From NCBI RefSeq assembly GCF_034039665.1, contig NZ_CP120131.1:490206-522205 (forward strand): a DNA stretch of 32,000 nucleotides, written 5' to 3'. The stretch is from Mammaliicoccus sp. Dog046. GTDB taxonomy: Bacteria; Bacillota; Bacilli; Staphylococcales; Staphylococcaceae. Made by a program: the position numbers and the translations under genes. The notes under the pieces were generated by a model. It was not told the DNA's origin and did not search any database. It saw only the letters and a program-made list of their open reading frames with translations. Shown here one piece after another: positions 1,381 through 31,430 of the stretch. The first letter of the stretch is position 1. The number at the start of each line of letters is the position of its first letter.

Positions 1381-1867
1381 GTCGTAGATTAACTTTGTAG
1401 TTAAGCGACAAGATTGGGTAAGTCGTAGATTAACTTTTGAATTAAGCGACGAGATGGCCAAAGTCGTAGATTAACTCTTGAATTAAGCGACGAGATGAGT
1501 GAAGTCGTAGATTAACTTTGTAGTTAAGCGACAAGATTGGGTAAGTCGTAGATTAACTTTTGAATTAAGCGACGAGATGGCCAAAGTCGTGAGTTAATTC
1601 CAAAGTTAATCCAAGAGATGACCAAAGTCGTGAGTTAACGCCAGAGTTAATCCAAGAGATGGCCAAAGTCGTGAGTTAACTCCGAAGTTAATCCAAGAGA
1701 AAGCCGAAGTCGTGAGTTAACGCCAAAGTTAATCCAAGAAAAGGGCCAAGTCGTGAGTTAACTCCGAAGTTAATCCAAGAGAAAGCCGAAGTCGTGAGTT
1801 AACGCCAAAGTTAATCCAAGAGATGAGGTAAGTCGTGAGTTAATTCCAAAGTTAATCCAAGAGTCGT
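1381..1867. repeat. Tandem array 1: 12 units of exactly 41 bp, in two subfamilies
   Basis: Units start at 1381, 1422, 1463, 1504, 1545 (type A, GTCGTAGATTAAC...TTAAGCGAC) and at 1586, 1627, 1668, 1709, 1750, 1791, 1832 (type B, GTCGTGAGTTAA...GTTAATCCAAGA). No ORF track entry (60 aa or longer) falls within the array. Confidence 0.95.
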
Positions 1868-1888
1868 ATCCCAAACTTCTATATAAAA

Positions 1889-1925
1889 TGAAAAAAGGTT
1901 CAGACCTTAAGTCTGAACCTTTTCG
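1889..1925 (-). terminator. Rho-independent terminator of the LysM-CHAP gene
   Basis: Stem AAAAGGTTCAGAC (1893-1905) pairs with GTCTGAACCTTTT (1911-1923). The A-run at 1891-1896 gives a T-run on the minus strand. Lies 4 nt after the stop. Confidence 0.8.
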
Positions 1926-1928
1926 TTA

Positions 1929-2747
1929 TTAATGAATGTATGAATAGTTGTAAACTTCTGATGCTGGTATTGTTCTGTAGTCTGTTACGCCTGGTGGTGT
2001 ATTGTAGTTTGTTTCAGAAATAAGCAAACTTCCATCAGCGTTGATTGATTCAACATAAGCAACGTGTCCATATTGTCCAGCTGTTGACTGCATGATTGAA
2101 CCGACTGCAGGTGTGCTATCTACACGGAAACCGTCAGCTTGTGCTGCGCCTGCCCAATATTTAGCGTCTCCCCAGTATGTACTAATTGAACTTCCAGCTT
2201 GTCCTCTACGATCAAATACATAATATGTACATTGACCCCAGTCATATAAATTTTGGTCATTAAATGATTGATTGCCAGTTGTTTGAGTTGGTTGTGTATT
2301 ACTTGCTGTTGTAGTTGCAGTTTCACTTCCGCTTCCACCAGCAATTTTTAATGTTTGACCAGGATAGATAATATAACCTTGTAATTGATTTGAATTCATA
2401 AGTTGGTCAACTGAAACACCATGTTGTTGAGCGATAACGTCTAATGAATCGCCGCTTTTCACTGTGTATGTAGAACCTGAAGTTGCTGTACTTGTACTAT
2501 CTTGAGAGCCACTTCCTCCAGCTGAACTACTTCCGTTTACAGTAATGACTTGTCCTGGGAATATCATGTTACCTGAAATATTGTTATTAGATTTCAGTTG
2601 GTCAACAGATGTACCATATTGATCGGCTATTTGCCATAAAGACTCACCATTTTTTACAGTATGTTGTGTAGATGCGTCTGCATCATGATGTGTAGCTAAT
2701 GCTGCAACACCTGAAACTGCTGTTACTGCGAATGCAAATTTTTTCAA
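1929..2747 (-). CDS. Secreted peptidoglycan hydrolase with signal peptide, 2 LysM domains and a C-terminal CHAP domain (SsaA/Sle1-like)
   Basis: 272 aa with TTG start at 2745-2747 and SD GAGGAGG. Signal peptide ends ...HHDADA. Two LysM repeats (HTVKNGESLWQIADQYG..., YTVKSGDSLDVIAQQHG...) separated by S/T/G linkers. CHAP motif GQCTYYVFDRR...GHVAYVE. Confidence 0.9.
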   Translation of the reverse strand: MKKFAFAVTAVSGVAALATHHDADASTQHTVKNGESLWQIADQYGTSVDQLKSNNNISGNMIFPGQVITVNGSSSAGGSGSQDSTSTATSGSTYTVKSGDSLDVIAQQHGVSVDQLMNSNQLQGYIIYPGQTLKIAGGSGSETATTTASNTQPTQTTGNQSFNDQNLYDWGQCTYYVFDRRGQAGSSISTYWGDAKYWAGAAQADGFRVDSTPAVGSIMQSTAGQYGHVAYVESINADGSLLISETNYNTPPGVTDYRTIPASEVYNYSYIH

Positions 2748-3064
2748 AGGCTTATCCTCCTCGTTTATCGTAAAATGTATAGAAACAGTTATCTGTAAAT
2801 ATATAAATCCTTCGATACCAGTAATGGTAACAAAAATCGTTATAGAAGTACTCTATGTCATCACTTTGTAATGAAAATACAATAATTGATGAATGACGAG
2901 TTTATGTGAAATGAAAGCGTAAAACTTGTGGGAATGGGATATTTTCGATATGTAAAAATATGTATGTGAATGGAATGTTACAGAAGGGTGATGTCTTCAT
3001 GTTTGAAAAGTGATGCTATACGATGTAAAATGTTGGTATCACTTAAGAGAAGGAATGATTACGA

Positions 3065-3712
3065 ATGAGTTATGAACAACATTATGATTCCCATAGCGCT
3101 AGTGATTCACATGGCTCAGCGATTAGAAAAACATGGTTATACTTTTTATATTATTGGGTGATATTTGGTGTCGGTACTTATATAGGACAATTTGTACCAC
3201 CAGCATTATATTTACCAATATCAATTGGTTTATTTGCATTAATAATGATTTCACTTTTTGTAAAATCTTCTAGAAAATTTAGCGGACTGATTTCAAATGT
3301 GTTTGCATTCTTAATAGGTGTACTTTCATATACATCATTTATGTATTATCTTGGTGCATTAGGCACGCAAGCATTTTATGGAAATATTGCATTAGCTATC
3401 GGTGCATTTGCGGCATTTGGAATATTAGGTTATTTCATGATTGACGATGCATCTGGTTTAGGAAAATATTTATTCGTAACATTAATCGCATTAATCGTAG
3501 CAAGTTTTGTTGGTTTATTCATAAATAATCCAATTTTCCATACTGTTATTTCAGTAATTGGTCTTGGCTTGTTCTTGCTGTATACTGTTTATGATTTTAA
3601 TAGAATGAAATTGGGGAACTTCTCACCTAGAGAAATGGGATTCAATTTATTTATTAACTTATTAAATATCATCATGCATATCTTAAGACTTGCGAGTATT
3701 TTAAAGGATTAA
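3065..3712 (+). CDS. Bax inhibitor-1/YccA family membrane protein
   Basis: 215 aa, about 7 TM. Family-typical C-terminal region LLYTVYDFNRM...NLFINLLNIIMHILRLASIL. Confidence 0.85.
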   Translation: MSYEQHYDSHSASDSHGSAIRKTWLYFLYYWVIFGVGTYIGQFVPPALYLPISIGLFALIMISLFVKSSRKFSGLISNVFAFLIGVLSYTSFMYYLGALGTQAFYGNIALAIGAFAAFGILGYFMIDDASGLGKYLFVTLIALIVASFVGLFINNPIFHTVISVIGLGLFLLYTVYDFNRMKLGNFSPREMGFNLFINLLNIIMHILRLASILKD

Positions 3713-3721
3713 TATAAAACT

Positions 3722-3767
3722 AAGTAAGCTCTGCCGATGTTATACAGGTGCAGGGCTTACTTTTTTT
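3722..3767 (+). terminator. Rho-independent terminator
   Basis: GTAAGCTCTGC (3724-3734) pairs with GCAGGGCTTAC (3750-3760), followed by T7. Confidence 0.8.
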
Positions 3768-3847
3768 GAACGGCAAACTTTGCGAGATTGATGCAATATT
3801 GTATAATAAGTATGTTAAATAACTCACTTTGAAAGAGAGATGGAATT

Positions 3848-4561
3848 ATGGGACGTAAATGGAATAATATTAAGGATAAAAAAGCCCAAAAAGATAAAAA
3901 TACGAGTAGAATATATGCGAAATTTGGTCGTGAAATATATGTTGCTGCTAAATCAGGTGAACCAGATCCAGAATCTAACCAAAACTTGAAATTCGTATTA
4001 GAAAAAGCTAAAACTTATTCTGTTCCAAAACACATTATAGATAGAGCAATTGAAAAAGCAAAAGGCGGAGCAGAAGAAAACTTTGATGAATTACGTTACG
4101 AAGGATTTGGCCCAAGTGGTTCAATGCTTATTGTAGATGCATTAACAAACAACGTTAATCGTACAGCAAGTGATGTGAGAGCAGCATTTGGTAAAAATGG
4201 TGGGAACATGGGTGTTTCTGGTTCAGTAGCTTACATGTTCAATCATACAGCTGTATTTGCATTTAAAGGTAACTCTGCTGATGAAATCTTTGAAGTACTA
4301 CTTGAAGCAGATTTAGATGTTAGAGATGTAATTGAAGAAGAAGAATTAACTATCGTCTATGCTGAACCTGATCAATTCGCACAAGTTCAAAATGTACTAA
4401 AAGAAAATGGTGTAGAAGACTTCGAAGTTGCTGAATTATCAATGTTAGCACAATCAGAAGTGACATTATCTGAAGAAGATCAAGAAACATTTGAAAAATT
4501 AGTAGACGCTATTGAAGAATTAGAAGATGTACAACAAGTCTTCCACAATGTAGATTTGTAA
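3848..4561 (+). CDS. YebC/PmpR family DNA-binding transcriptional regulator (YeeN-like subgroup)
   Basis: 237 aa. N-terminus [30 protein letters not shown] and ...YEGFGPSG... are hallmarks of the family. Confidence 0.95.
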
Positions 4562-4570
4562 GGTTATCAT

Positions 4571-5056
4571 ATGATGAATAAAGAGAAATGGATTGAAACA
4601 CTTCAACTTTCAGCACATCCAGAAGGTGGCTATTATAGAGAAGTGATCAAATCTAATCAATCACTAGAAAGTGGAAATGCGTTATTTACAAGTATCTATT
4701 TTTTATTAGAGAAAGATAATATATCTCATTTTCATAGAATTCAATCAGATGAAGTTTGGTATTATCATGCTGGACAGACGTTGACAGTGCATATGATATA
4801 TCCAACTGGTGAATATAAAAAGGTCAAAGTAGGACCAAATGTTGAAAATGGCGATGTACTACAAACACTTGTACCTAAAGGTGTTATCTTTGCTTCAACA
4901 GTTGAAGGTGATAATGATTATGCTTTAGTAGGATGTATGTGTGCACCTGGATTTCAATTTGAAGCATTCGAATTATTTACACAAGATGAGTTATTACCTT
5001 TATATCCACAACATGAAGAAGCAATCAGAAAGTATGCATTTGCATCTGAAGAATAA
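4571..5056 (+). CDS. Cupin-fold DUF985 family protein
   Basis: 161 aa. HPEGGYYRE...IYFLL...SHFHRIQSDEVWYYHAG matches the DUF985 cupin pattern. Starts 10 nt after the YebC stop, so probably the same operon. Confidence 0.8.
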   Translation: MMNKEKWIETLQLSAHPEGGYYREVIKSNQSLESGNALFTSIYFLLEKDNISHFHRIQSDEVWYYHAGQTLTVHMIYPTGEYKKVKVGPNVENGDVLQTLVPKGVIFASTVEGDNDYALVGCMCAPGFQFEAFELFTQDELLPLYPQHEEAIRKYAFASEE

Positions 5057-5097
5057 AAATGAGGCTGGGACATAATATATGTCTCAGCCTCATTTTG
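5056..5097. terminator. Bidirectional terminator between convergent genes (GGCTGGGACATAATATATGTCTCAGCC family)
   Basis: A 17-bp stem at 5057-5073 pairs with 5079-5096. An A-run and a T-run flank it on either side. It abuts both stop codons. Confidence 0.85.
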
Positions 5098-7881: not shown

Positions 7882-7908
7882 TGAAATACGATTATCAATC
7901 AATATAAA

Positions 7909-7948
7909 GAAGCGGCTAGGACACAATCAAGTTGTCCTAGCCGCTTTA
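7909..7948. terminator. Bidirectional terminator between convergent genes
   Basis: AAGCGGCTAGGACA (7910-7923) pairs with TGTCCTAGCCGCTT (7933-7946). Confidence 0.85.
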
Positions 7949-9371: not shown

Positions 9372-11261
9372 ATGACATCAACCTTTACGGTGGCTTATAT
9401 AATTATTGCAATCCTTCTATGGATAGGAATTAATGCATTAGTAGTTAAACGCAGAAAGAATAAATCCGTATCAAAAAATCAATCTAACGATTCAAAAGTG
9501 AAAGAAACATCACATTTACAATCAAAAGACGATTCAAAAACGGATCAACAACCAGTTACACGTCATGAAAAAATGGAAGAAGAAAAGCAAGCGTCTGTAT
9601 CAGAGACAGCTGCGACAACTTCAAACGAAGAAAATTCTGAAGTAGAACATGACGCTCAAACAGAAGAAGCACACGATGATTTAGAAGATCGTGGTGCAGA
9701 ACTAAATGAAGATGAACCAATTAATGAACAAATTAAGAAACAACATGTGAATTTTGTTTTTGGAAAAGGTGTTTCTAGAAATAAAATACTGTTAGCCTTA
9801 TTGTTCGGTATGTTCATCGCAATATTGAACCAAACATTATTGAACGTAGCATTACCAGTCATTAATAATGAATTTAGTGTATCAACATCAACCGGACAAT
9901 GGTTGGTGACAGGATTTATGCTTGTAAATGGTATTTTGATACCAATCAGTGCCTTCTTAATTAGTAAATATTCGTACAGAAGATTATTCCTAATAGCAAT
10001 GACACTCTTTACGATTGGATCATTACTATGTGCCATTTCATTTAACTTCCCGTTAATGATGACAGGACGTGTCATTCAAGCGATAGGTGCAGGTATATTA
10101 ATGCCTCTTGGTACGAATGTATTTATGACGATTTTCCCACCTGAAAAACGTGGTGCCGCTATGGGTACATTGGGTGTTGCATTTATATTAGCACCAGCAA
10201 TTGGTCCGACGTTATCAGGTTGGATCGTACAAAATTATCATTGGAACGTAATGTTCTATGGTATGTTTGGCATTGGCTTACTTGCTATCTTTATCAGTTT
10301 CTTCTGGTTCAAGATTTATCAACAAACATCAAATCCAAAACCAGATGTGCCAGGTATTATATTTAGTTCCATTGGTTTCGGTATGTTGTTATATGGATTT
10401 AGTGAAGCGGGTAATGATGGCTGGTCTTCAGCGACAGTAACTATATCATTAATAGTGGGTGTGATCTTTACAGCACTATTTGTAATCCGTGAAATCAGAA
10501 TGGATAAACCAATGTTAGATATGTCTGCATTGAAATATTCTGGATTTACATTAACAACTGTAATCAATGTAATCGTAACAATGAGTTTATTCGGTGGAAT
10601 GATTCTTCTACCAATGTACTTACAAAACTTACGTGGATTCTCACCATTAGATTCAGGTTTACTATTATTACCTGGTTCATTACTTATGGGTATTATGGGT
10701 CCAATCGCTGGTAAAATGTTAGACTCAATTGGTATTAAACCATTAGCTTTAATCGGATTAACAATTATGACGTTCGCGACTTATGAACTGACACAATTGA
10801 ATATGGATACACCATATACAACGATTTTAGTAATTTATATCGTACGTTCATTCGGAATGAGCTTTATCATGATGCCAATTATGACAGCAGGTATGAACGC
10901 ATTACCACAAAGATTAATACCACATGGTAATGCAATTAGTAATACAGTAAGACAATTAGCAGGATCAATCGGTACAGCAATACTTGTAACAGTTATGACG
11001 CAAAATGCAAGTTCACATTTAGCGAATATGTCTGATAACCTTGATTCAACAAATCCAATGATTCAAGAACAAGTAAAAGCACTATCAGATTCTGTAGGTG
11101 GAGAACAAGCAGGTACATCTGCTTTAGTTGAATTCCTTAATAAATTAGCAACAGTTCAAGGTATTAACGATGCCTTCTGGGTTGCGACATTATTCAGTGT
11201 GATTGCTCTTGTTTTAAGTTTATTCTTAAAAGGAAAATCACATTATATTTCACACGAGTAA
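9372..11261 (+). CDS. MFS drug:H+ antiporter, DHA2 (EmrB/QacA, 14-TMS) family, with a ~135-aa N-terminal extension
   Basis: 629 aa with SD AAGGAGGG, starting 13 nt after the adaptor stop. The DHA2 core begins near residue 136 (LLALLFGMFIAILNQTLLNVALPVI...). Residues 1-135 comprise one TM, KRRKNK and an acidic low-complexity region. Confidence 0.9.
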   Translation: MTSTFTVAYIIIAILLWIGINALVVKRRKNKSVSKNQSNDSKVKETSHLQSKDDSKTDQQPVTRHEKMEEEKQASVSETAATTSNEENSEVEHDAQTEEAHDDLEDRGAELNEDEPINEQIKKQHVNFVFGKGVSRNKILLALLFGMFIAILNQTLLNVALPVINNEFSVSTSTGQWLVTGFMLVNGILIPISAFLISKYSYRRLFLIAMTLFTIGSLLCAISFNFPLMMTGRVIQAIGAGILMPLGTNVFMTIFPPEKRGAAMGTLGVAFILAPAIGPTLSGWIVQNYHWNVMFYGMFGIGLLAIFISFFWFKIYQQTSNPKPDVPGIIFSSIGFGMLLYGFSEAGNDGWSSATVTISLIVGVIFTALFVIREIRMDKPMLDMSALKYSGFTLTTVINVIVTMSLFGGMILLPMYLQNLRGFSPLDSGLLLLPGSLLMGIMGPIAGKMLDSIGIKPLALIGLTIMTFATYELTQLNMDTPYTTILVIYIVRSFGMSFIMMPIMTAGMNALPQRLIPHGNAISNTVRQLAGSIGTAILVTVMTQNASSHLANMSDNLDSTNPMIQEQVKALSDSVGGEQAGTSALVEFLNKLATVQGINDAFWVATLFSVIALVLSLFLKGKSHYISHE

Positions 11262-11994: not shown

Positions 11995-12015
11995 ACGGGA
12001 ATGTTACTTCGAATA

Positions 12016-12045
12016 GAGCTGAGACACTGTGTCTCAGTTTTTTTA
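12016..12045 (+). terminator. Rho-independent terminator
   Basis: CTGAGACA (12019-12026) pairs with TGTCTCAG (12030-12037), followed by T7. Confidence 0.8.
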
Positions 12046-12059: not shown

Positions 12060-12253
12060 GATATCGTGCGATTGACCCCGGAACGCACGATATCTCGGCC
12101 AAACTCCAAAGTCTTCGTGCGATTAGACCTGAAACGCACGATATCTCGGCCAAACTCCAAAGTCTTCGTGCGATTGGACCTGAAACGCACGATATCTCGG
12201 CCAAACTCCAAAGTCTTCGTGCGATTGGACCCGGAACGCACGATATCTCGGCA
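12060..12253. repeat. Tandem array 2: 3.7 units of 51 bp with a CGTGCG/CGCACG hairpin core
   Basis: Units start at 12065, 12116, 12167 and 12218. In the first copy the stem extends to GATATCGTGCG (12060-12070) paired with CGCACGATATC (12084-12094). Linker is TATCTCGGCCAAACTCCAAAGTCTT. Confidence 0.95.
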
Positions 12254-12294: not shown

Positions 12295-12330
12295 AAAAAA
12301 TGAGACACATGTTGTAATGTGTCCCAGTTC
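12295..12330 (-). terminator. Rho-independent terminator of uppP
   Basis: On the minus strand, TGGGACACAT pairs with ATGTGTCTCA (one G-U pair), followed by T6 (A-run at 12295-12300 on plus). Confidence 0.8.
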
Positions 12331-16738: not shown

Positions 16739-16775
16739 AATGTCGACAAAGTTATCACTTTGTCGGCATTTTTTA
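16739..16775 (+). terminator. Rho-independent terminator of the MFS-DUF456 operon
   Basis: ATGTCGACAAAGT (16740-16752) pairs with ACTTTGTCGGCAT (16757-16769), followed by T6. Confidence 0.8.
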
Positions 16776-16780
16776 TGCGT

Positions 16781-16944
16781 TGAACATTGCAAGTGAGGGT
16801 CGACAAGCAACATTGAGCGCCTGAACATTGCAAGTGGAGGTCGACAAGCAACGTTGAAGCGTTGAACATTGCAAGTGGAGGTCGACAAGCAACGTTGAAG
16901 CGTTGAACATTGCAAGTGGAGGTCGACAAGCAACATTGAGCATG
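16781..16944. repeat. Tandem array 3: 4 units of 41 bp
   Basis: TGAACATTGCAAGTGGAGGTCGACAAGCAACGTTGAAGCGT-type units start at 16781, 16822, 16863 and 16904. Confidence 0.95.
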
Positions 16945-16945
16945 G

Positions 16946-17536
16946 CTAACGAGATAGTTCTGAGAAACAATCTTTTTAGAAAATCTAACGAGATAGTTCT
17001 GTAAAACAATCTCGTTAGAGCGAAAATAGCCCACGAAAAAGCCTGATTTACTACCAAAAATGAGAAAACAACACGCTAACGAGATAGTTTAAGGAAACAA
17101 TCCTTTTAGAAAATCTAACGAGATAGTTCTGTAAAACAATCTCGTTAGAGCGAAAATAGCCCACGAAAAAGCCTGATTTACTACAAAAAATAAGAAAACA
17201 ACATGCTAACGAGATAGTTTGAGAAAACAATCCTTTTAGAAAATCTAACGAGATAGAAAGTAAAAACAATCTCGTTAGAGCGAAAATGGTCATCTCAAAA
17301 GGCCGTATTTACTACAAAAAATGAGAAATGAACATGCTAACGAGATAGTTTTGGGAAACAATCCCGTTAGAAAATCTAACGAGATAGAAAGTAAAAACAA
17401 TCTCGTTAGCGGGAAAATGGACACCTCAAAAGGCCGTATTTACTACAAAAAATGAGAAATGAACATGCTAACGAGATAGTTTTGGGAAACAATCCCGTTA
17501 GAAAATCTAACGAGATAGAAAGCAAAAACAATCTCG
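16946..17536. repeat. Tandem array 4: 4.5 units of a 130/131-bp composite repeat, each with two CTAACGAGAT hairpin modules
   Basis: Units start at 16946, 17076, 17206, 17337 and 17468. Each has a perfect 10-bp stem CTAACGAGAT-N14-ATCTCGTTAG and a degenerate first copy. Confidence 0.95.
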
Positions 17537-17650
17537 TTTGTCGGCATTTTTTTATAAAAAGGATATGTAGAAATAAAAATTGCATGCTATATTGTTACAG
17601 ATGTGTAATTCAGGGTAATTGTATGATAATAATTAAAAGGAGTATATGAT

Positions 17651-18511
17651 ATGTCGAATAGAATATTAGCAATCACTGGTCCGACTTCAGGTATTGGAAA
17701 GAGTACAGTATTAGAATTAGCACATCGTTATGACACACTTATTTTATTATGTAGAAATATAGAGAAGGGTGAACATTTAAAGAAGCTGTTGCTTCTAGAA
17801 CATCAGGATTTAAATGTAGATGTAATTAAATGTGATTTATCGGATTTAGCAAATGTTATGAAAGCTGCTACAAAGGTGATGGATACTTATTCACATGTTG
17901 ATTGTTTAATTAACAATGCTGGTGTCGTTTCTTTAACACGACAAAAGACTGTCGACGGCTATGAGCTTATGTTCGGTACAAATTATTTGGGTCATTTCTT
18001 GTTGACGCATATATTATTTGAGTCGGTTATGAAAAGTGAAGACAAGCAAATTATTATTGTGTCGTCAGGCGCTTATAAGTATGCACATCTTGGACGTCGA
18101 AATTTTAAATATCCATTAAGATTCAATCCAATACAATCATATAGTCGGTCTAAATTAGCGACAATATACTTTATGCAAGAATTACATGAACAATTTCATG
18201 AACATGGATTAAACGTTACAGCTGTACATCCAGGTGCAGTCTCAACAAATTTAGGTAAAACGAAATATAATAAAACTTTTGGAGACATGATTTATAAAGT
18301 TTTTGATCCGATGTTTATTACACCTAAGGAAGGTGCAAAATCCACAATTAAAGTGACGAAAGACCAATGTTTATATAGAGGGCAATATGTTTCAGATGGA
18401 AAAGTAACGCCACTTGTTAACCAAGGATTGAATTATTATGATCGTAAGCGGCTCATTCGTGAAACGTTAGAATCGTTACGATTAAATCAGTTTATGTATT
18501 TATGTGATTAA
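17651..18511 (+). CDS. Short-chain dehydrogenase/reductase (SDR) family oxidoreductase
   Basis: 286 aa. Cofactor motif TGPTSGIGKS, NNAG, and catalytic YSRSK. SD AAGGAG with 8-nt spacing. Confidence 0.9.
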   Translation: MSNRILAITGPTSGIGKSTVLELAHRYDTLILLCRNIEKGEHLKKLLLLEHQDLNVDVIKCDLSDLANVMKAATKVMDTYSHVDCLINNAGVVSLTRQKTVDGYELMFGTNYLGHFLLTHILFESVMKSEDKQIIIVSSGAYKYAHLGRRNFKYPLRFNPIQSYSRSKLATIYFMQELHEQFHEHGLNVTAVHPGAVSTNLGKTKYNKTFGDMIYKVFDPMFITPKEGAKSTIKVTKDQCLYRGQYVSDGKVTPLVNQGLNYYDRKRLIRETLESLRLNQFMYLCD

Positions 18512-21409: not shown

Positions 21410-21973
21410 ATGGATAGATTATTAGTTACATTAGGGGAAAACCAATATTTAGAAACAGAGCGATTGATATTAAGACCTGTTACATTAGAAGATACAGAAG
21501 ATTTGTTTGAATATGCTTCTGATGTAGAGAACACTTCACATGTATTTCCTACACATCAATCTATAGAAGAAACGAAAGAAGTCATCGCAAACTTCTATTT
21601 AAATTCACCGCTCGGTAAATATGGAATCGTATTAAAGGAAAATAATAAATTTATTGGATCGATAGATTTAAGAGTAGAAAGTGAACATAAGCGAGCAGAA
21701 ATCGGTTATGCATTGAATTTATCGTATACAGGAAAAGGTTATATGACAGAAGCAGGTACAAAAATATTGTCATTGGCTTTTGATAAATTGAATCTAAATC
21801 AAGTCAAAGCCGTTCATAGTACGATAAATCCTAAGTCAGGCGAAGTGATGAAACGTTTAGGTATGAAGAAGGTCGGTGTGATGCCTAAAAATAGAATTCA
21901 TAAAGAAAGAATCGTCGACGATGCCATATACGCAATTACTGATACAGAATTTCAAAATATAAATAGTAAGTAA
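21410..21973 (+). CDS. GNAT family N-acetyltransferase (RimJ/RimL-like)
   Basis: ATG 21410 preferred (SD AGGTG); the track starts at 21380, inside the kinase gene. TERLILRPVTLED...IGYALNLSYTGKGYMTEA is typical of the RimJ/L subgroup. Confidence 0.9.
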   Translation: MDRLLVTLGENQYLETERLILRPVTLEDTEDLFEYASDVENTSHVFPTHQSIEETKEVIANFYLNSPLGKYGIVLKENNKFIGSIDLRVESEHKRAEIGYALNLSYTGKGYMTEAGTKILSLAFDKLNLNQVKAVHSTINPKSGEVMKRLGMKKVGVMPKNRIHKERIVDDAIYAITDTEFQNINSK

Positions 21974-22015
21974 TGAGAGAAGTAGGATAGTGAGTTTTAG
22001 AGTGTCTGTTGTGTG

Positions 22016-22410
22016 GTTCTAAGGGACAGAATTCATAGTATTGTCCGTTACGCCGTTCTAAGGGACAGAATTCCAGATTATGTCCGTTACGCGGTTCTAA
22101 GGGACAGAATTCCAGATTATGTCCGTTACACGGTTCTAAGGGACAAAATTCCAAATTATGTCCGTTACGTGGTTCTAAGGGACAGAATTCAGAGTATTGT
22201 CCGTTACGCCGTTCTAAGGGACAGAATTCCAGATTATGTCCGTTACGCGGTTCTAAAGGACAAAATTCCAGATTCTGTCCGTTACACGGTTCTAAGGGAC
22301 AAAATTCCAGATTCTGTCCGTTACAGCATTCTAACGGTCATAATTCAGAATACTGACACTTACGGAACCTATAACAGTCACAATCCGAATTCTGTTCCAT
22401 CACTTACACT
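22016..22410. repeat. Tandem array 5: 8 conserved plus about 2 decayed units of 39 bp
   Basis: GTTCTAAGGGACAGAATTCCAGATTATGTCCGTTACGCG-type units start at 22016, 22055, 22094, 22133, 22172, 22211, 22250 and 22289. Degenerate copies follow from 22328. Confidence 0.9.
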
Positions 22411-22449
22411 AATCTAACAACTATAACGCGTACTATTTTCACTATAATG

Positions 22450-22490
22450 AAAAAAACAAGCAGCTCATTGAGCTGCTTGTTTTCTTTTTA
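22450..22490. terminator. Bidirectional terminator (GNAT operon / nitroreductase)
   Basis: ACAAGCAGC pairs with GCTGCTTGT within 22456-22480, flanked by A7 and TTTTCTTTTT. Confidence 0.8.
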
Positions 22491-24033: not shown

Positions 24034-24078
24034 AAAGAAGCGGCTGGGACATAATATATGTCTCAGCCGCTTCTTTTA
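24034..24078. terminator. Bidirectional terminator (GGCTGGGACATAATATATGTCTCAGCC family)
   Basis: GAAGCGGCTGGGACAT (24037-24052) pairs with ATGTCTCAGCCGCTTC (24058-24073). Confidence 0.85.
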
Positions 24079-25386: not shown

Positions 25387-25401
25387 CTTAGGAGGAATAT
25401 T

Positions 25402-25773: not shown

Positions 25774-25787
25774 AAATTAAAATGAAT

Positions 25788-27069: not shown

Positions 27070-27086
27070 TGTAATATAATTGTAAT
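27070..27086 (+). promoter_or_regulatory. Direct repeat matching the WalR-type consensus TGTWAH-N5-TGTWAH
   Basis: TGTAAT-ATAAT-TGTAAT lies about 20 nt upstream of a putative -35 (ATGACA 27107-27112, with TATAAT at 27130-27135) of the protease gene. It could occur by chance in AT-rich DNA. Confidence 0.25.
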
Positions 27087-27175
27087 ATAAATTTACACTT
27101 TTGTTGATGACATTTGCTTCGCGAATATATATAATTGACTTGTACTTATTCAGAATTTGTATAGGGGTGGATTTG

Positions 27176-28723
27176 ATGAAGAATCAAAAGAAAGTATTAT
27201 CAGTTGGCTTTGCATCAGTAATCGCATTATCTTTAGGGGTATCACACATAGCAAATGCAGCAGAAAATAGTCCGATAGATCAAAAGGAATTAAAATCAAT
27301 TCCTAAGTTGGACGTAAACAGTAAGTCAGAAGCACAAGAGGTTCTAAGTCAATTACCAGGAAATGCAAACATTAAAAAAAGCTACAAACAGTTTGCGGTA
27401 ACTAATGAATTCCGAGATAAGTTAGGTTTTACACATTACACACTTAAACCGAAAGTCGATAACTATCTTGTTGAAGATAAAGAAGTAAAGATACATACGA
27501 ATGGCAAAAAGGAGTTAGAACTCGTAAATGGTGATGTAAATACAGATAAAGTTACTTATACGAATAAGCAAAGTTTATCTAAGCAAGACGCAATCAATAA
27601 GGCTTTTAACAGTATTGGTAAAAGTCAAAATGAAGTTAAAAATGTTAAAGGCAAACAAGTCATTAATAAAAATGAATTGGTGATAAATGCCAAGAAGAAA
27701 AAGCTCGTTTATAATGTTGAAGTAATTTATTTAGAGCCTGAACCAGCACGATGGGAAATTAAAATCGATGCAGAAACAGGAGATGTAATAAGTAAGCAGA
27801 ATAAAATTGAGCATGTTGTAGGTAGTGGGAAAGGTGTTAATGGAGATACGAAAGAACCATTGAATTTAACAAAAGTAACTAATGGTTATGACCTTCAAGA
27901 TATGACACATACTGGAGCTATTCAAACGTATGATGCGAAAGGTGGTAAATCAAGTGCATCCTTAATGACAGATCCAGATACGACATTCAATGATGCAAAC
28001 CAAGCTGCCGGTGTAGATGCACATTTTAATGCAGCTAAAACATATGATTATTATTTGAATACGCATCAACGTGATAGTTATGATGGCAACGGTGCACCAA
28101 TTAATTCTATCGTTCATTATGACAAGGATTATAATAATGCCTTTTGGAATGGACAATATATGGTATATGGAGACGGTGATGGAACAACATTTACATCATT
28201 ATCTGCTGCCGATGACGTTGTCGCACATGAATTGACACATGCTGTCACTGAACATAGTGCAGGACTTGTGTATGAGAATCAACCTGGCGCATTAAATGAA
28301 TCTATGTCTGATGTGTTTGGCTATTTTGTAGATCCAGATGATTGGTTGATGGGTGAAGATGCTTATACACCTGGAAAATCTGGAGATGGTTTAAGAAGTT
28401 TATCTAATCCAGAACAATATAATCAACCCGCACATATGGATAATTATCAAAACTTACCAAACACAGAACAAGGTGACTATGGTGGTGTCCACATTAATAG
28501 TGGTATTCCAAATAAAGCAGCTTACTTAACAATTACAAAAGTAGGTAAAGAAAAGTCAGAAGCGATTTATTATAGAGCGTTAACAGAATATCTGTCTTCT
28601 AATTCTTCTTTCTTAGACGCAAAATACGCTTTGAAACAGGCTGCATCTGATTTATACGGTGCAAATTCAACTGAGGAACAAGAAGTCATAAAAGCTTGGG
28701 AATCAGTAGGTATTACTGGATAA
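27176..28723 (+). CDS. Secreted M4 (thermolysin/aureolysin-family) zinc metalloprotease, prepro form
   Basis: ATG 27176 preferred (SD AGGGGTGG). Signal peptide ends ...VSHIANA. A propeptide of about 200 aa follows. Catalytic HELTHAV plus NESMSDVF, and a C-terminal helical domain. Confidence 0.95.
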   Translation: MKNQKKVLSVGFASVIALSLGVSHIANAAENSPIDQKELKSIPKLDVNSKSEAQEVLSQLPGNANIKKSYKQFAVTNEFRDKLGFTHYTLKPKVDNYLVEDKEVKIHTNGKKELELVNGDVNTDKVTYTNKQSLSKQDAINKAFNSIGKSQNEVKNVKGKQVINKNELVINAKKKKLVYNVEVIYLEPEPARWEIKIDAETGDVISKQNKIEHVVGSGKGVNGDTKEPLNLTKVTNGYDLQDMTHTGAIQTYDAKGGKSSASLMTDPDTTFNDANQAAGVDAHFNAAKTYDYYLNTHQRDSYDGNGAPINSIVHYDKDYNNAFWNGQYMVYGDGDGTTFTSLSAADDVVAHELTHAVTEHSAGLVYENQPGALNESMSDVFGYFVDPDDWLMGEDAYTPGKSGDGLRSLSNPEQYNQPAHMDNYQNLPNTEQGDYGGVHINSGIPNKAAYLTITKVGKEKSEAIYYRALTEYLSSNSSFLDAKYALKQAASDLYGANSTEEQEVIKAWESVGITG

Positions 28724-28927
28724 AATAATTGAATTTTTACAAGCATCACATTAAAATATAAATAAGGAATAGCACGACTTAATCTTGATATTTAGAAGTA
28801 GTTTTTTCAGTATGACAATCATCTTGTATATATTCACCGGGAAGAATAATACTTGATGCGTAAAGAACAATTATATGATTTTCTAAATCAAATGAGTTTG
28901 CTTATTCGAAAAAAATGGGGGAGTTAC

Positions 28928-29770
28928 ATGATGAAACTAGGAGAACGAGTTAAACAAAGAAGAATTGACTTAAAGCTTTCACAACAAACGTTGGCGAAAG
29001 ATATTGCAACTCAAAGTCAAATATCTAAAATTGAAAAAAATGAATTACAACCAGGATCACAATTACTATTTAATATGTCTAGACGATTAAATTGTAGTAT
29101 GGATTATTTGTTTAATGGTAATGAGTTAGATAACCAGTTTGAACAAAAATTGAAAGTCATCGAACGATTACTTAGTAAGCAAGACTATGATGCACTTATT
29201 CCATTGTTAGATGGTAATTATTTATCTAATGGATCTACAGATGAAATAGCTGCTATTAAATGGGTTAGAGCGATGATCGCACAACATAAATATGATAATC
29301 TTGACGAAGCAATTGAAAATATAGATGAGTCATATGATTTGTTGAATTCAAATATGTATGAAAGATTACAAGTAAGTATTTGTGATGCAAAAGCAAGATT
29401 TCATTTTGAAAAAGGTAACAATGATGTTGCAAAAGCAGCTTTAGAACAAGGTTTGCAAATTGCTAAACGCTATAATGTGGATGAGAAATATTCAATCCAC
29501 TTATTATACTTGTTATCAAATATGTATTTAACTGAAAATAGTTTCGATAGATGTTTAGCTTATGCACAAGCGGCATTAGATTTAACAATTAAATCAAATA
29601 ATTACGAGTTATATAGTGAAATTGTATATAACATAGTTAAATCAAAAATCGAAATGGGTATTAACAATGATAGTGACGTGAAACAATTAGATGTAGCACT
29701 ATACTTAAGTGATGCTTCTAAGAAATATAATGTTTCTATCTTAATTAGAGATTTAATGAAATTACAATAA
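28928..29770 (+). CDS. XRE-family HTH regulator with a C-terminal TPR-like helical-repeat domain (Rgg/PlcR-like architecture)
   Basis: ATG 28928 preferred (SD GGGGGAG, 6-7 nt upstream); the track starts at 28853. 280 aa. HTH: LGERVKQRRIDLKLSQQTLAKDIATQSQISKIEKNE. About 210 aa of helical repeats follow (for example IHLLYLLSNMYLTENSFDRCLAYAQAALDL). Confidence 0.75.
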   Translation: MMKLGERVKQRRIDLKLSQQTLAKDIATQSQISKIEKNELQPGSQLLFNMSRRLNCSMDYLFNGNELDNQFEQKLKVIERLLSKQDYDALIPLLDGNYLSNGSTDEIAAIKWVRAMIAQHKYDNLDEAIENIDESYDLLNSNMYERLQVSICDAKARFHFEKGNNDVAKAALEQGLQIAKRYNVDEKYSIHLLYLLSNMYLTENSFDRCLAYAQAALDLTIKSNNYELYSEIVYNIVKSKIEMGINNDSDVKQLDVALYLSDASKKYNVSILIRDLMKLQ

Positions 29771-29892
29771 TATCATTTCAACTCCTTGTATTTATTCGAG
29801 AATCGCTTTAAAAGGCATTTTATAATTGACGCGTACTACTTTGTCATGTAACCTTTTAAAGTATTCAAGATATATTTACAAGGAGATTTTTT

Positions 29893-31182
29893 ATGGAACA
29901 AATAGATAAGAAAGGTTCTTTCATAGCACTATTGCCGTTAATTGTGTTTGTTTTTCTGTTTATAGGAACAGGAGTAATTAAGAAAGACTTTGAATTCTTA
30001 CCATTAAATGTAGCAATTTTGATTGCTGCTGTATTCGCATGTGCAATGTATCCAAAGACACCATTAGCTAAGAAATTAGATATTTTTACAAAAGGTGCAG
30101 CACATCCAAATATATTATTAATGGTATTTGTATTTTTACTTGCAGGTGCTTTTAGTGAAACAGCAAAAAGTATGGGTGCGGTCAGTTCTACAGTTAATTT
30201 AGGATTATCATTAATACCTGGACAATTCCTATTAGCAGGACTATTTATCGTAGGTGCATTCATCTCAGTTGCTATGGGTACATCAATGGGTACAGTAGCA
30301 GCATTAGCGCCAGTGGGTGTTGGTATATCAGAAGCGACAGATATATCATTAGCACTAACAACAGCAACTGTTGTCGGAGGTGCAATGTTTGGTGATAATT
30401 TATCAATGATTTCAGATACGACAATTGCTGCAGTTCGAACGCAACAAACTAAGATGAGCGATAAATTTAAAATGAATTTCTTGATCGTTTTACCAGGTGC
30501 TATTATAACTATTTTTATACTATGGTTTATCACACGAGATGCTGGTATATCTGATGCCAGTCATGGTGGTTATAGTTTAATTAAAGTCATTCCATATCTA
30601 TTTGTATTAATAAGTGCTCTATGTGGAATGAACGTATTGCTCGTATTAGTATTAGGTATCGTCGTCGCAAGTTTAATTGGCTATATAGATGGCTCATTTA
30701 CACTTGCAGAAAATTTAAAAGCCATTTCAGACGGCTTAATCGGTATGCAAGATATTTCTATGATTGCGCTATTAATAGGTGGAATGATAGGGATTATTGA
30801 ATATAACGGTGGCATTACTTGGCTATTGAACGCAGTGACGAAAAAAGTAAAATCCAAACGCGGTGCAGAATTTGGCATTGCTGGATTAGTCAGTGTGACT
30901 GACTTAGCAACTGCAAACAATACAATTTCTATTATTACAACAGGACCATTAGCAAAAGAAATTGCGGATGATTATAATATTGATCCTAGAAAATCAGCCA
31001 GTATATTAGATATATTTGCAAGTACGATACAAGGAATTATTCCTTACGGTGCGCAAGTATTAGCAGCAACAAGTGTAGCAGGCATATCGACAATGTCATT
31101 GTTACCATATACATTCTATCCATATTTACTAGGCATATGCGGAATCGTATCAATCATTATTGGTTATCCGAGAAAAAAGTAG
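29893..31182 (+). CDS. Na+/H+ antiporter NhaC family protein
   Basis: 429 aa, about 11-12 TM. SD AAGGAG. Pattern FISVAMGTSMGT...GGAMFGDNLSMISDTTI is typical of NhaC. Confidence 0.85.
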   Translation: MEQIDKKGSFIALLPLIVFVFLFIGTGVIKKDFEFLPLNVAILIAAVFACAMYPKTPLAKKLDIFTKGAAHPNILLMVFVFLLAGAFSETAKSMGAVSSTVNLGLSLIPGQFLLAGLFIVGAFISVAMGTSMGTVAALAPVGVGISEATDISLALTTATVVGGAMFGDNLSMISDTTIAAVRTQQTKMSDKFKMNFLIVLPGAIITIFILWFITRDAGISDASHGGYSLIKVIPYLFVLISALCGMNVLLVLVLGIVVASLIGYIDGSFTLAENLKAISDGLIGMQDISMIALLIGGMIGIIEYNGGITWLLNAVTKKVKSKRGAEFGIAGLVSVTDLATANNTISIITTGPLAKEIADDYNIDPRKSASILDIFASTIQGIIPYGAQVLAATSVAGISTMSLLPYTFYPYLLGICGIVSIIIGYPRKK

Positions 31183-31196
31183 AGAAATAAATGAAG

Positions 31197-31232
31197 GAAA
31201 GATGCTAGGACAATGTCCTAGCATCTTTTTTG
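31197..31232 (+). terminator. Rho-independent terminator of nhaC
   Basis: GATGCTAGGAC (31201-31211) pairs with GTCCTAGCATC (31215-31225), followed by T6. Confidence 0.85.
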
Positions 31233-31234
31233 AT

Positions 31235-31430
31235 GAGATATCGTGCGATTGGATATGAAACGCACGAAGAGTTAGGGGTTAGTGCTGAGATATCGTGCGA
31301 TTGGATATGAAACGCACGAAGAGTTAGGGGTTAGTGCCGAGATATCGTGCGATTGGGTATGAAACGCACGAAGAGTTAAGGGTAAGTGCCGGGATATCGT
31401 GCGATTGAGTGTAAATCGCACGATATCCCG
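31235..31430. repeat. Tandem array 6: 3.8 units of 52 bp sharing the CGTGCG/CGCACG hairpin core of array 2
   Basis: Units start at 31235, 31287, 31339 and 31391. The last unit is a perfect 16-bp-stem palindrome, CGGGATATCGTGCGAT-N8-ATCGCACGATATCCCG (31390-31429). Confidence 0.95.

Follow-up and report, generated by a model that had tools for sequence, protein, structure and literature searches.

Tandem arrays behind genes of Mammaliicoccus sp. Dog046 are probably amplified cores of small intergenic repeat elements

Tandem arrays and terminators in the window

The stretch of DNA analysed here (the window; 32,000 nucleotides of Mammaliicoccus sp. Dog046, contig NZ_CP120131.1) carries six tandem arrays, all of which were recovered by TRF where an earlier note on this DNA had placed them. 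Together they cover 2,027 bp, or 6.3% of the window, in line with the approximately 2 kb and 6% estimated previously, and they have no coding capacity. A protein of the window is 100% identical to one of Mammaliicoccus sp. Dog046, and the Staphylococcus aureus frame of the earlier note is not supported. The arrays and the features around them are the following:

1283..1319, + strand: terminator of the phosphate-permease gene, upstream of array 1
1362..1380, + strand: purine-rich, head-like motif TTAATGTGAGATAGGGACG, directly before array 1
1381..1867, + strand: array 1, family F1, 12 in-register units of 41 bp (TRF 1381-1863)
1892-1924, − strand: terminator of the convergent gene, after array 1
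12015..12041, + strand: terminator upstream of array 2
12060..12253, + strand: array 2, family S2, 3.7 x 51 bp (TRF 12064-12252, 94% matches)
12301-12326, − strand: convergent terminator after array 2
16739..17555, + strand: MITE-like composite of ~820 bp that contains arrays 3 and 4 and is co-linear with relatives' copies
16777..16944, + strand: array 3, family F3, 4 x 41 bp (TRF 16777-16939, x4.0)
16945..17536, + strand: array 4, family F4, 4.6 x 130/131 bp (TRF 16937-17538, 131 bp)
21970-21990: motif like TTAATGTGAGATAGGGACG, before array 5
22013..22410, + strand: array 5, family F5, 39 bp x8.6 (TRF 22015-22349) plus ~2 decayed units
31198..31228, + strand: terminator upstream of array 6
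31235..31430, + strand: array 6, family S2, 52 bp x3.3 (TRF 31235-31407) plus a terminal palindrome
31448-31482: second terminator at array 6

Every array locus starts 43-107 nt after a stop codon, as measured from the ORF ends, and four of the five loci are flanked by convergent genes, as had been proposed. On the gene map of the window, arrays occupy 4 of the 9 convergent, 1 of the 12 co-directional and none of the 8 divergent intergenic regions, which amounts to an enrichment in convergent regions (4/9 vs 1/20 others; one-sided Fisher p ~0.02). The previous description of the arrays as mostly sandwiched between two terminators agrees with arrays 1, 2 and 6, which have terminator-like hairpins on both sides; array 5 is located between the stop codon of a GNAT gene and the sole terminator (22453-22483) and thus lies inside the transcription unit. 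Arrays in relatives are preceded by motifs similar to TTAATGTGAGATAGGGACG, including the conserved F3 head AATTGGATGAGGTTGG. TRF also detected higher-order periods of 82/123 and 78/156 bp. Consistent with the earlier reading, gene annotation of the window includes no transposase, RAYT or cas gene. Rfam yielded no match on any of the arrays, comparison with plasmids and phages no match to the array units, and literature searches neither an account of these units nor a described staphylococcal repeat family that they match.

The 39-bp period of array 5 keeps the reading frame, and a 134-aa ORF spans the array, the equivalent of which was called as a 181-aa gene on a metagenome contig. Array 5 could accordingly be read as a repeat protein (13-residue repeat VLRDRIxxxVRYx), with the other arrays being unrelated phenomena. 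We regard this as extremely unlikely: the ORF has no Pfam match and no convincing ribosome-binding site, its variable residues fall on the hairpin loop, and the periods of sister arrays (40, 41 and 52 bp) cannot be coding. Moreover, the unit shows homology to a 39-bp family that is non-coding and is read on the opposite strand, and other Mammaliicoccus lineages have no such gene at the array 5 site.

Hairpin units and their family relationships

Two subtypes make up array 1, a (GTCGTAGATTAAC..TTAAGCGACGAG; 5 units) and b (GTCGTGAGTTAAC..AGTTAATCCAAGAG; 7 units), with conserved arms and a variable loop and linker; interleaved subtypes are seen within arrays. The unit of array 2 is built on the hairpin GATATCGTGCG-N13-CGCACGATATC, that of array 4 comprises two 34-nt hairpin modules (CTAACGrGAT-N14-ATCyCGTTAG) and a 52-nt linker, and the hairpin of array 5 is CTAAGGGACA-N13-TGTCCGTTAC. 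Array 6 terminates in a perfect palindrome with a 17-bp stem (31390-31430). The units are A+T-rich, with hairpin loops of 12-16 nt. DNA folding against shuffled sequences bears out the hairpin that the earlier note ascribed to every unit in the case of arrays 2 (first unit, z −5.2), 4 (z −4.8), 5 (z −3.5) and 6 (z −3.9; last unit, −20.3 kcal/mol, z −9.2), but only marginally for array 1 (z −1.4 and −2.1), and no significant hairpin was found for array 3 in this genome (z +0.8).

The assignment of the arrays to five unrelated families did not hold. A single composite includes arrays 3 and 4 as modules, and the array 5 unit is homologous to family F4' of Marseille-Q6498 (25/39 matches, 0/2000 shuffles), which has a CTAAsG...CsTTAG foot in common with array 4; direct comparison of F4 with F5 revealed no significant similarity. 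The arms of array 6 are common to array 2 and, in Marseille-Q6498, to an array (40 bp x7.8) that occupies the pit/LysM site. Array 1 matches a 41-bp x10 array at a different site in M. stepanovicii (28/41 matches, 0/2000 shuffles), and the array 3 unit matches F3 of M. vitulinus (23/41 matches, 4/2000 shuffles). A period of 39-41 bp is shared by at least 10 sequence families.

Compensatory stem changes, which were sought across copies and relatives, are present. When the modules are aligned by their shared foot, 84% of cells are paired (68% in shuffles), 6 of the 10 stem pairs change on both sides, and the covariation of 0.431 (vs 0.152 in shuffles, with 0/500 reaching 0.431) falls to at most 0.146 once partner columns are slid, although this signal stems from few independent events and partly from the alignment of families without proven homology. 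Within the securely homologous subset, covariation is 0.191 vs 0.089 (0/500), with two compensated pairs. F5 and Marseille-Q6498 F4' differ by compensatory changes at two stem pairs and share a mismatch conserved at stem position 5, an A-T pair in the F4 module stem is replaced by G-C between the window and a close relative, and some of the covarying stems contain G-U pairs.

Conserved arms with variable loops, loops longer than optimised hairpins would have and the period common to so many families are also compatible with tandem binding sites for a DNA-binding protein that acts as a dimer, such as a nucleoid, segregation or topology factor, in which case the functional features would be arms spaced by about two helical turns and a period of about four turns. 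We give this reading very little weight. The arm sequences differ completely between families, so that no single protein fits, and we know of no candidate protein; furthermore, the arrays are dispensable at any given site, and conservation of length is more simply accounted for by in-register slippage and common descent.

Dispersal, turnover and insertion at terminators

The families are not unique to the loci in the window, being carried at other loci and by other species. Units of F3 were found in 33 metagenome contigs (M. vitulinus-type) with 38 distinct flanks, corresponding to at least 19 loci; of the 37 flanks that could be classified, 29 adjoin the 3' end of a gene and 8 the 5' end. Three F3 loci lie within 41 kb of M. 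vitulinus. The F4 modules and the S2 arms are each present at 4 loci in 3 lineages, and relatives of F1 occur in M. stepanovicii and M. sciuri; a scan of the genome collection for the S2 hairpin returned chance matches only. At many loci, the F3 array is bounded by a conserved head and tail, and the resulting layout, head-(41 bp)n-tail, is BOX-like.

Comparison with relatives revealed variation in copy number, orientation and presence or absence. At the pit/LysM site, the window has F1, L013 has F1 in inverted orientation, L011 an S2-type array and L015 F8, and in L058 the site is empty. The inverted F1 array of the close relative, at the same site as array 1, has 13.4 copies vs 12 in the window (L013 11289-11837). 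At the position of array 2, a close relative has a single S2 hairpin (L017, ~1665-1705) rather than 3.7 units, which demonstrates expansion or contraction in place. The site of array 5 has 13.8 copies in a close relative vs 8.6 (plus 2 decayed) in the window, and the GNAT site of Marseille-Q6498 is occupied by a different 41-bp family of ~22 units; the DUF456 and GNAT sites show turnover like that at the pit/LysM site. F3 is present in 1 copy in the composites of the relative vs 4 in the window.

The composite in the window starts with a T-hairpin (16739-16779), followed by array 3, array 4 and a right end (17537-17555) that repeats the 3' half of the T-hairpin; across copies, the order is T-hairpin, E100-like element, F3, F4 and tail. 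It is bounded by a 16-nt direct repeat, TTTGTCGGCATTTTTT, and the close relative has an empty orthologous site with a different terminator. Co-linear copies are found at two other loci of the close relative, and a partial one in Marseille-Q6498. In the composites of the relative, F4 modules are arranged as an array (90 bp x2.2) and as a unit of two modules, and Marseille-Q6498 has 6 of them. Within an element, one unit family can bud from another, as F8 does within F3. One target site is represented in its empty state:

7907..7946, no strand assigned: empty target site with a single terminator hairpin, AAGAAGCGGCTAGGACACAATCAAGTTGTCCTAGCCGCTT

The close relative carries this hairpin twice, once on either side of a 339-bp composite. 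In the empty/filled pairs, two duplications, one of 41 bp (exact match over 40 identical bases) and the other of 23 bp (with one mismatch), coincide exactly with the native terminator hairpin; a third flanking duplication measures ~48 bp, and all three bound a CAGA...TCTG element. The first terminator copy at filled sites is missing its T-tract, making read-through into the element likely. Significant flanking direct repeats are present at only 3 of 18 arrays, which confines documented hairpin duplication to the composite and one M. vitulinus locus, arrays 1, 2, 5 and 6 not being among them. We saw no candidate for a mobilising gene, either in the window or in the flanks examined, nor did we find a parent IS whose ends match. 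Target duplications of variable length, matched to the size of a structure, are not the product of classical transposases, so that insertion by repair or template switching is equally possible.

These observations contradict, as a full explanation, the notion that the arrays are purely local VNTRs, generated in place by slippage or duplication of terminator or neutral DNA, with no mobility and with resemblances due to chance or to terminator motifs. This notion, which we consider improbable, would suit the solo hairpin and the 3.7-copy array at the same position, the higher-order repeats, the location of arrays in the least constrained DNA and the budding of F8 within F3. However, one 41-bp family recurs with the same head and tail at no fewer than 19 loci, one composite occupies 3-4 loci of which the orthologous sites are empty, and a single orthologous site can hold different families; local duplication survives only as the amplification step.

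Alternatively, the hairpins might act as functional RNA modules in 3' UTRs or small RNAs, stabilising mRNA, attenuating read-through or binding a regulator, with selection keeping the stems. Array 5 and its Marseille-Q6498 counterpart, located between stop codon and terminator, must be transcribed, and the probable read-through into filled sites and the covarying stems with G-U pairs point in the same direction. In addition, an E100-like module beside the F4 modules reaches the Rfam gathering score of tsr24, an S. aureus sRNA validated by RT-PCR (PMC4752604). Such a role is nonetheless unlikely to account for the arrays, given that arrays 1, 2 and 6 lie beyond a terminator on both sides, the units match no Rfam family, one family is inverted at the same site, and sites are empty or filled by another family in close relatives without visible consequence.

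Origin of the arrays and comparison with known repeat systems

We conclude that the arrays are probably the amplified, hypervariable cores of small non-coding, non-autonomous intergenic repeat elements distributed across the genus Mammaliicoccus. They may be viewed as hairpin minisatellites embedded in modular elements of BOX-like or MITE-like type; the earlier note overlooked the larger elements, equipped with heads, tails and inverted ends and inserting at terminators, of which the arrays form internal modules. Elements assembled from hairpin modules of 30-40 nt, to which a head, a tail and imperfect inverted ends (CAGAGTATCGACAAAG / CAGATTGTGGACAAAC) may be added, would land directly beside intrinsic terminators downstream of genes; the outcome is seen at the loci above, and the agent may be an enzyme acting in trans or structure-directed repair at hairpins. 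For the composite of arrays 3 and 4, insertion has left a copy of the whole native terminator hairpin on either side. The 39-41-bp unit or a multiple of it then expands, contracts, homogenises and sometimes inverts in register, as observed, presumably by replication slippage or unequal recombination, the outcome being a VNTR with higher-order periods. The arms keep their complementarity while loops and linkers drift, which suggests either that the folded form of a single strand, whether DNA or RNA, is under constraint or that palindromic units amplify better. The build-up behind genes may reflect terminators serving as the target and the insertion-tolerant gap between convergent terminators, and a host function, for instance on 3' UTRs or termination, would be secondary, if any. 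The missing hairpin of array 3 and the weak one of array 1 count against this explanation.

REP/BIME elements, which occur in enterobacteria and pseudomonads, are likewise extragenic palindromes at 3' ends or between convergent genes, single or clustered and variable in copy number. Were the arrays true members, their palindromes would have been spread by a RAYT (TnpA-REP, HUH Y1), with REPs in alternating orientation, and the S2-type array of Marseille-Q6498 is indeed readable as arms alternating in orientation. We nevertheless consider membership very unlikely: there is no conserved GTAG/CTAC head (GTAG is confined to F1 subtype a), the window contains no Y1 transposase, several different arm sequences would demand several RAYTs, the units are A+T-rich with long loops, and the arrays are direct, not alternating, repeats of the complete hairpin and linker. 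Filled sites also carry long target duplications, which HUH single-strand transposition (IS200/IS605) is not known to make. MIRU of mycobacteria and SIRU of S. aureus are tandem units of 40-130 bp at many intergenic loci, with strain-variable copies usable for typing, and in this they are similar; however, they are operationally defined VNTR loci, and hairpins, head/tail modules and empty/filled sites fall outside their definition.

BOX of Streptococcus pneumoniae has the structure boxA-(boxB)n-boxC (Croucher et al. 2011, PMC3049150), that is, a modular head, a tandem unit of ~40-45 bp in variable number and a tail, as in F3 here. BOX shares with our elements predicted stem-loops, enrichment downstream of coding sequences, strain-variable copy number and the lack of a known encoded transposase, and it nests or clusters with small repeats including a terminator-like one, SPRITE (PMC3049150), the counterparts of which here are the T-hairpin/E100-like element and the GGCTGGGACA terminator family. 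The differences are the genus, the many unit families with one period in Mammaliicoccus, with no sequence relationship being expected, and the target: BOX has no clear target duplication (PMC3049150), whereas at least one element type here duplicates the target terminator hairpin over a long stretch.

STAR elements of Staphylococcus aureus and S. lugdunensis (Purves et al. 2012, PMC3532100) belong to the same family, Staphylococcaceae, and are interspersed intergenic direct repeats with tandem units of ~50 nt, variable repeat number, loci that differ between species, and unknown function and spreading mechanism. Their defining 14-bp G+C-rich motif, T(G/A/T)TGTTG(G/T)GGCCC(C/A) (PMC3532100), is absent from the window, which agrees with the earlier impression that the units do not resemble STAR; the units found here are A+T-rich hairpins. 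In addition, STAR spacers are locus-specific (PMC3532100), whereas whole units recur between loci here. BrickBuilt of Porphyromonas gingivalis, a minisatellite inside a MITE, is similarly made of a leader, tandem minisatellite, tail and small inverted ends, and is multi-copy (19 per genome) and always intergenic (Klein et al. 2015, PMC4596501). It differs in its phylum and its 23-nt unit, compared with 39-41-nt hairpin units here, and its abstract mentions no duplication of a terminator hairpin (PMC4596501).

By these analogies, the elements resemble pneumococcal BOX and staphylococcal STAR more than true REP/BIME. The proposed REP/BIME- or BOX-like interspersed system is thus upheld in its recurrence, turnover and compensated stems; the comparison with REP/BIME is reasonable, although there is no support for membership.

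The Mammaliicoccus sciuri group is the source of the mec region. Adjacent to mecA, SCCmec carries the dru units, 40-bp direct repeats in a region whose DNA is thought to derive from the mecA donor species (PMC3636274). They are reminiscent of our arrays in their 40-bp period and hypervariability, which makes them a possible lead.

Hairpin-unit arrays downstream of mostly convergent genes

Analysis of the window with Tandem Repeats Finder (TRF) recovered, in place, all 6 tandem arrays that the earlier note had picked out from the sequence alone:

Array 1, 1381-1863: 41-bp units of two subtypes (family F1)
Array 2, 12064-12252: 51-bp units, 3.7 copies, 94% matches (family S2)
Array 3, 16777-16939: 41-bp units, 4.0 copies (family F3)
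Array 4, 16937-17538: 131-bp units, 4.6 copies (family F4)
Array 5, 22015-22349: 39-bp units, 8.6 copies (family F5)
Array 6, 31235-31407: 52-bp units, 3.3 copies (family S2)

Collectively, they occupy 2,027 bp, or 6.3% of the window, in agreement with the initial estimate of about 2 kb and 6%. Read in register, array 1 comprises 12 units (5 of subtype a and 7 of subtype b), array 5 continues for 2 decayed units beyond its TRF span, and array 6 is closed by a perfect palindrome with a 17-bp stem. The S2 hairpin has 16 matches in the window versus 0 expected, and shuffled sequence never gives such arrays. On the gene map, the arrays start 43-107 nt downstream of a stop codon at every locus and 4 of the 5 loci lie between convergent genes, both as originally described; of the 9 convergent intergenic regions, 4 hold an array, against 1 of the 12 co-directional and none of the 8 divergent ones (one-sided Fisher p ~0.02, our calculation). 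The proposed location between two terminators applies to arrays 1, 2 and 6, which are bordered by terminator-like hairpins, but not to array 5, which lies upstream of the sole terminator. Between the permease terminator and array 1, a perfect 19-bp tandem repeat (1316-1362; 2.5 copies of TTTTTTGATATTTATAGTG) reiterates the T-tract region of that terminator.

A CRISPR array was rejected because entire units recur, with variation limited to a few loop and linker bases, and the gene scan of the window shows no cas gene. A coding reading of the arrays was rejected as well. Array 5 (22013-22417; counterpart at 10640-11185 of the close-relative locus L017) contains an open frame, (VLRDRIxxxVRYx)n, which stays open because 39 bp equal 13 codons; an ORF of this type is annotated as a 181-aa gene, without a Pfam match, in a public metagenome assembly. 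This gene call is probably an annotation artefact. Arrays are wrongly annotated as genes. Elsewhere in the window, a 222-aa ORF (29865-30533, minus strand), antisense to and fully within an NhaC-type antiporter gene (29893-31182), is probably a false call; in some relatives, the interval from the HTH regulator to the antiporter contains a genuine minus-strand gene.

Dispersal and turnover across Mammaliicoccus

The repeats are dispersed over multiple loci, with a terminator-proximal, 3'-biased placement. When metagenomes were scanned for the F3 core, 33 contigs were retrieved, with the match mostly at the contig end; clustering left 38 distinct flanks, which therefore represent at least 19 loci, so that this family is not confined to the window, a possibility that the earlier note had allowed for. 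Of the F3 flanks in these contigs, 29 border the 3' end of a gene and 8 the 5' end (binomial p <0.001, our estimate), bearing out the suspected 3'-end bias. In approximately 413 kb of Mammaliicoccus DNA, TRF detected 39 arrays with a period of at least 20 bp, which 11-mer linkage sorted into 14 families; the period is 39-41 bp in 31 of the 39 arrays, across at least 10 families. The S2 hairpin pattern (TCGTGCGATT-N8-AWCGCACGA) had 8 matches among species-representative genomes, all in unrelated MAGs and consistent with chance, and the F4 hairpin pattern had no match in either JGI metagenomes or viral contigs. Of the short-read Logan contigs from this strain (SRR27467580), L010 ends (5829) inside array 1 and L001 ends (4564) at a hairpin just before array 3 (T-hairpin). 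Because short-read contigs stop inside or at the arrays, these are easily missed; they fragment draft genomes, in which they are largely invisible since assemblies break there, and will be under-represented in databases.

We ran TRF on the syntenic DNA of relatives within Mammaliicoccus (previously the Staphylococcus sciuri group): a close relative (ENA contig k141_15875, loci L013 and L017; 94-99% protein identity), Marseille-Q6498 (L011, L019), M. vitulinus (L015, L021, L022), M. sciuri (L023), M. stepanovicii (L024) and another lineage (L058). The phosphate-permease-like protein of the window (276-1274) shares 100% identity with a protein of Mammaliicoccus sp. Dog046, which places the window in this genus rather than in S. 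aureus; its counterparts in M. sp. Marseille-Q6498 and M. vitulinus are 97% and 94% identical, respectively. Orthologous array sites are highly fluid, displaying presence or absence of arrays, replacement of one family by another and in-register expansion or contraction. At the pit/LysM-CHAP site, L058 has no array and two back-to-back terminators alone, the window has 12 F1 units, L013 an inverted F1 array (13.4 units) and L015 another, distinct 41-bp family, while L011 carries a 40-bp array (7.8 units) with arms GATATCGTGCG and CGCACCATATC, which are the arms of window arrays 2 and 6 bar one base in the second arm. At the DUF402/BacA site, a single S2 hairpin occupies in the close relative the exact position of the 3.7 units of the window. 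The DUF456 site, home of arrays 3 and 4 in the window, holds nothing in L017, a 40-bp array (2.4 units) in L019, F3 in reverse orientation (7.1 units) in M. vitulinus, a 41-bp array (10 units) homologous to F1 (28/41 matches, 0/2000 shuffles) in M. stepanovicii and two F1-like hairpin units in M. sciuri. At the GNAT/nitroreductase site, F5 has 8.6 units (plus 2 decayed) in the window and 13.8 in L017, and Marseille-Q6498 has approximately 22 units of another 41-bp family, with two subtypes interleaved; no array was found there in the other species compared. Families missing at a window site occur there in relatives: the CpsB/MFS site has 7.5 F3 units in M. vitulinus and a terminator alone in the window (24035-24075). 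Copy number at orthologous sites thus differs between strains, the comparison proposed at the outset, and one unit family occurs at several loci with strain-dependent copy number, as in interspersed VNTRs. The arrays are usable as VNTR typing markers.

Insertion at terminators and anatomy of the elements

Target duplications of hairpin length accompany some of the insertions. In the first empty/filled pair, the window has one terminator (7907-7946), whereas in L013 two copies of the same terminator frame a 339-bp element; the copies, at 17972 and 18351, are identical over 40 bases (41 bp by junction reading). In the second, a single AGACTAATGCTTGTCATTAGTCT hairpin is present in Dog046 (L010) and Marseille-Q6498 (L011), whereas in L013 two copies of it (23 bp, one mismatch) enclose a 496-bp element of opposite orientation. 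At a third site, in L019, a terminator of ~48 bp is duplicated, and in M. vitulinus an F3 element has a diverged copy of the local terminator on either side. The duplications of 41, 23 and ~48 bp each equal the native terminator hairpin; the fixed short target-site duplication characteristic of MITEs is absent. Duplication as a universal accompaniment of insertion was rejected, because significant flanking direct repeats were found at only 3 of 18 arrays. No parent insertion sequence with matching ends was seen in ~410 kb of loci, and the IS257/IS431 end has 0 matches in any locus, for which reason a suspected mimicry of such ends by F3 arms was discarded. The terminator hairpin GGCTGGGACATAATATATGTCTCAGCC is near-identical at 5058-5094, 24035-24075 and 31448-31482, with a related copy at 7907-7946; these terminators form a scattered family that recalls the SPRITE repeats of pneumococcus.

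At different loci, F3 arrays are flanked by two conserved modules, a head (...TTTTAATTGGATGAGGTTGG...GGyCTGA) and a tail (AGCATGTAC-TTAAAAGAACAAAyGAAAAAT...CACGATTTTGTAAAG). This head-(unit)n-tail layout is seen in F3 of M. vitulinus-type contigs and in a MITE-like composite element of ~820 bp (16739..17555), which consists of arrays 3 and 4, a hairpin at 16739-16779 and a half-copy of that hairpin at 17537-17555. Arrays 3 and 4, initially counted as separate families, are accordingly not independent. Co-linear copies of the composite lie at two further loci in the close relative, and one Marseille-Q6498 copy is partly co-linear with it. Its modules are:

Module 1: CAGAG and the left-end T-hairpin, TCGACAAAG..CTTTGTCrGCATTTTTTATGCG
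Module 2: E100-like element (~100 nt, non-tandem), missing from the window copy
Module 3: F3, with F8 units nested in some copies
Module 4: F4 modules
Module 5: tail, ..GGTTTGyCCACAATCTG

The relative has one F3 unit and 1-2 F4 units in the composite, the window 4 and 4.6, respectively. Imperfect terminal inverted repeats were recognized by eye between the start (CAGAGTATCGACAAAG) and the opposite-strand end (CAGATTGTGGACAAAC), with 12 of 16 positions matching, and the ends CAGA...TCTG are present at two loci. F8, a 41-bp hairpin family (GATAAATAG...TATTTATCAAG...), sits precisely inside the composite's lone F3 unit, at 18120-18210 and 8840-8890 of L013, with GACAAG on both sides; new unit families seem to bud within older ones.

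Stem conservation and kinship with known repeat classes

Single-strand folding of the units against dinucleotide shuffles recovered the hairpin ascribed to every unit in the earlier note for arrays 2 (z -5.2, full first unit), 4 (-4.8), 5 (-3.5) and 6 (-3.9; last unit -9.2), weakly for array 1 (-1.4 and -2.1) and not for array 3 (+0.8). Variation within arrays falls mostly in loops and linkers, and the arms are conserved with their complementarity maintained. We aligned 44 distinct 33-34-nt modules of F4, F4' (a Marseille-Q6498 family), F5 and F7 on their common foot CTAAsG...CsTTAG, an alignment that presumes homology, which is proven for F5 versus F4' only (25/39 matches, 0/2000 shuffles). 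In this alignment, 84% of cells are paired versus 68% in shuffles, 6 of 10 stem pairs have double-sided changes, and the covariation score is 0.431 versus 0.152 shuffled (reached in 0/500), falling to at most 0.146 with partner columns slid. In the F5 plus F4' subset, covariation is 0.191 versus 0.089 shuffled (0/500), two neighbouring pairs are compensated (G-C/A-U swapped to A-U/G-C) and stem position 5 is mismatched in 21 of 22 distinct modules. F4 stems are perfectly paired in both the window and the close relative despite an A-T to G-C double change between the two. Compensatory changes, the check suggested earlier, are thus present, with support that is moderate rather than strong because independent events are few. 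Direct comparison of F4 and F5 units was not significant (19/39 matches, 231/2000 shuffles), and the link between arrays 4 and 5 rests solely on the common foot motif and the bridging family F4'.

REP/BIME elements are 20-40-nt imperfect palindromes with a GTAG/CTAC-type head, arranged in alternating orientation with defined linkers, and RAYT is a Y1 HUH transposase gene often flanked by its own REPs. The REP/BIME-like character proposed for the arrays stands as regards their extragenic position at gene 3' ends or between convergent genes and the palindromes, present in 4 of 6 arrays. It fails as regards a shared head, no tetranucleotide being common to the array families and GTAG being confined to F1 subtype a and lost in subtype b, and as regards clustering: the window arrays are head-to-tail hairpin-plus-linker repeats, and the L011 40-bp array is the sole one readable as alternating arms. 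As first reported, RAYT and cas genes are absent from the gene scan of the window, with no RAYT among its 29 scanned genes. REP/BIME is a reasonable functional analogy, right in spirit, but membership is not supported.

In behaviour, the arrays are nearest, among described repeats, to STAR, BOX, BrickBuilt and MIRU/SIRU-type interspersed VNTRs. STAR has a 14-bp motif, T(G/A/T)TGTTG(G/T)GGCCC(C/A), every ~40-50 bp (PMC3532100); its core TGTTGKGGCCC has 0 matches in the window at up to 1 mismatch, in line with the dissimilarity stated in the earlier note. The head-(unit)n-tail layout of F3 arrays resembles that of BOX (PMC3049150) or BrickBuilt (PMC4596501). Rfam, searched as proposed, gave no match to any array at gathering score or at E-value <=5, and full-text searches of the literature on Mammaliicoccus or S. 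sciuri turned up nothing relevant to repeats of this kind. The arrays are a variant of the BOX/STAR/minisatellite-MITE kind, undescribed in the literature searched, whose unusual feature is target duplication equal to an entire terminator hairpin. They document in Mammaliicoccus, the mecA reservoir genus, a rich intergenic repeat set of which the searchable literature yielded no description.

The elements may have been moved by a trans-acting enzyme or by hairpin-directed repair, and copy number could change via slippage or unequal recombination. The common 39-41-bp period would reflect shared descent, with in-register events preserving length, and the elements may be mostly selfish or neutral, affecting 3' UTRs and termination as a side effect. 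As a more specific scenario, which we regard as rather unlikely, non-autonomous elements would enter intrinsic terminators through a structure-directed cut at each foot of the hairpin, the duplication being the whole hairpin and its length (23-48 bp) dictated by target structure, not by the enzyme; a putative Mammaliicoccus enzyme would mobilise them, with the 39-41-bp hairpin units as its recognition modules. If true, structure-directed insertion would give Firmicutes an equivalent of the REP/RAYT relationship that uses other chemistry, and could explain where the 40-bp dru array of SCCmec came from. The empty/filled pairs with whole-hairpin duplication offer a testable handle on the decades-old question of BOX- and STAR-type spread. 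The elements alter the 3' ends of transcription units through duplicated terminators and added structured 3' UTRs.

Two non-tandem elements accompany the arrays. At 31461-31624 (minus strand), an interspersed element of ~130 nt joined to the terminator at 31448-31482 resembles Rfam S35 (srn_0335) below threshold (47.3 bits versus 69, E 3.7e-9); a copy 95% identical, with the same terminator, lies at 12929-13059 of L017, and the corresponding window site (24035-24075) is empty. The E100-like element (CATGCTTTCCGCGGGC...AGCCTGTAGTCT...GTCAGCGC) is interspersed in L019 (18378-18630), L013 (8960-9160 and 18020-18120), and L015 and L021 (at least 8 copies), with none in the window; in L019 it reaches the Rfam gathering score of the S. 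aureus sRNA tsr24 (64.8 bits versus 50). A 1.2-kb query of all unit families had no matches in the phage collection, and among plasmids none to tandem units; the E100-like module alone matched, in 3 plasmids (two from M. sciuri, one from S. arlettae). This element is often fused to the T-hairpin and arrays.
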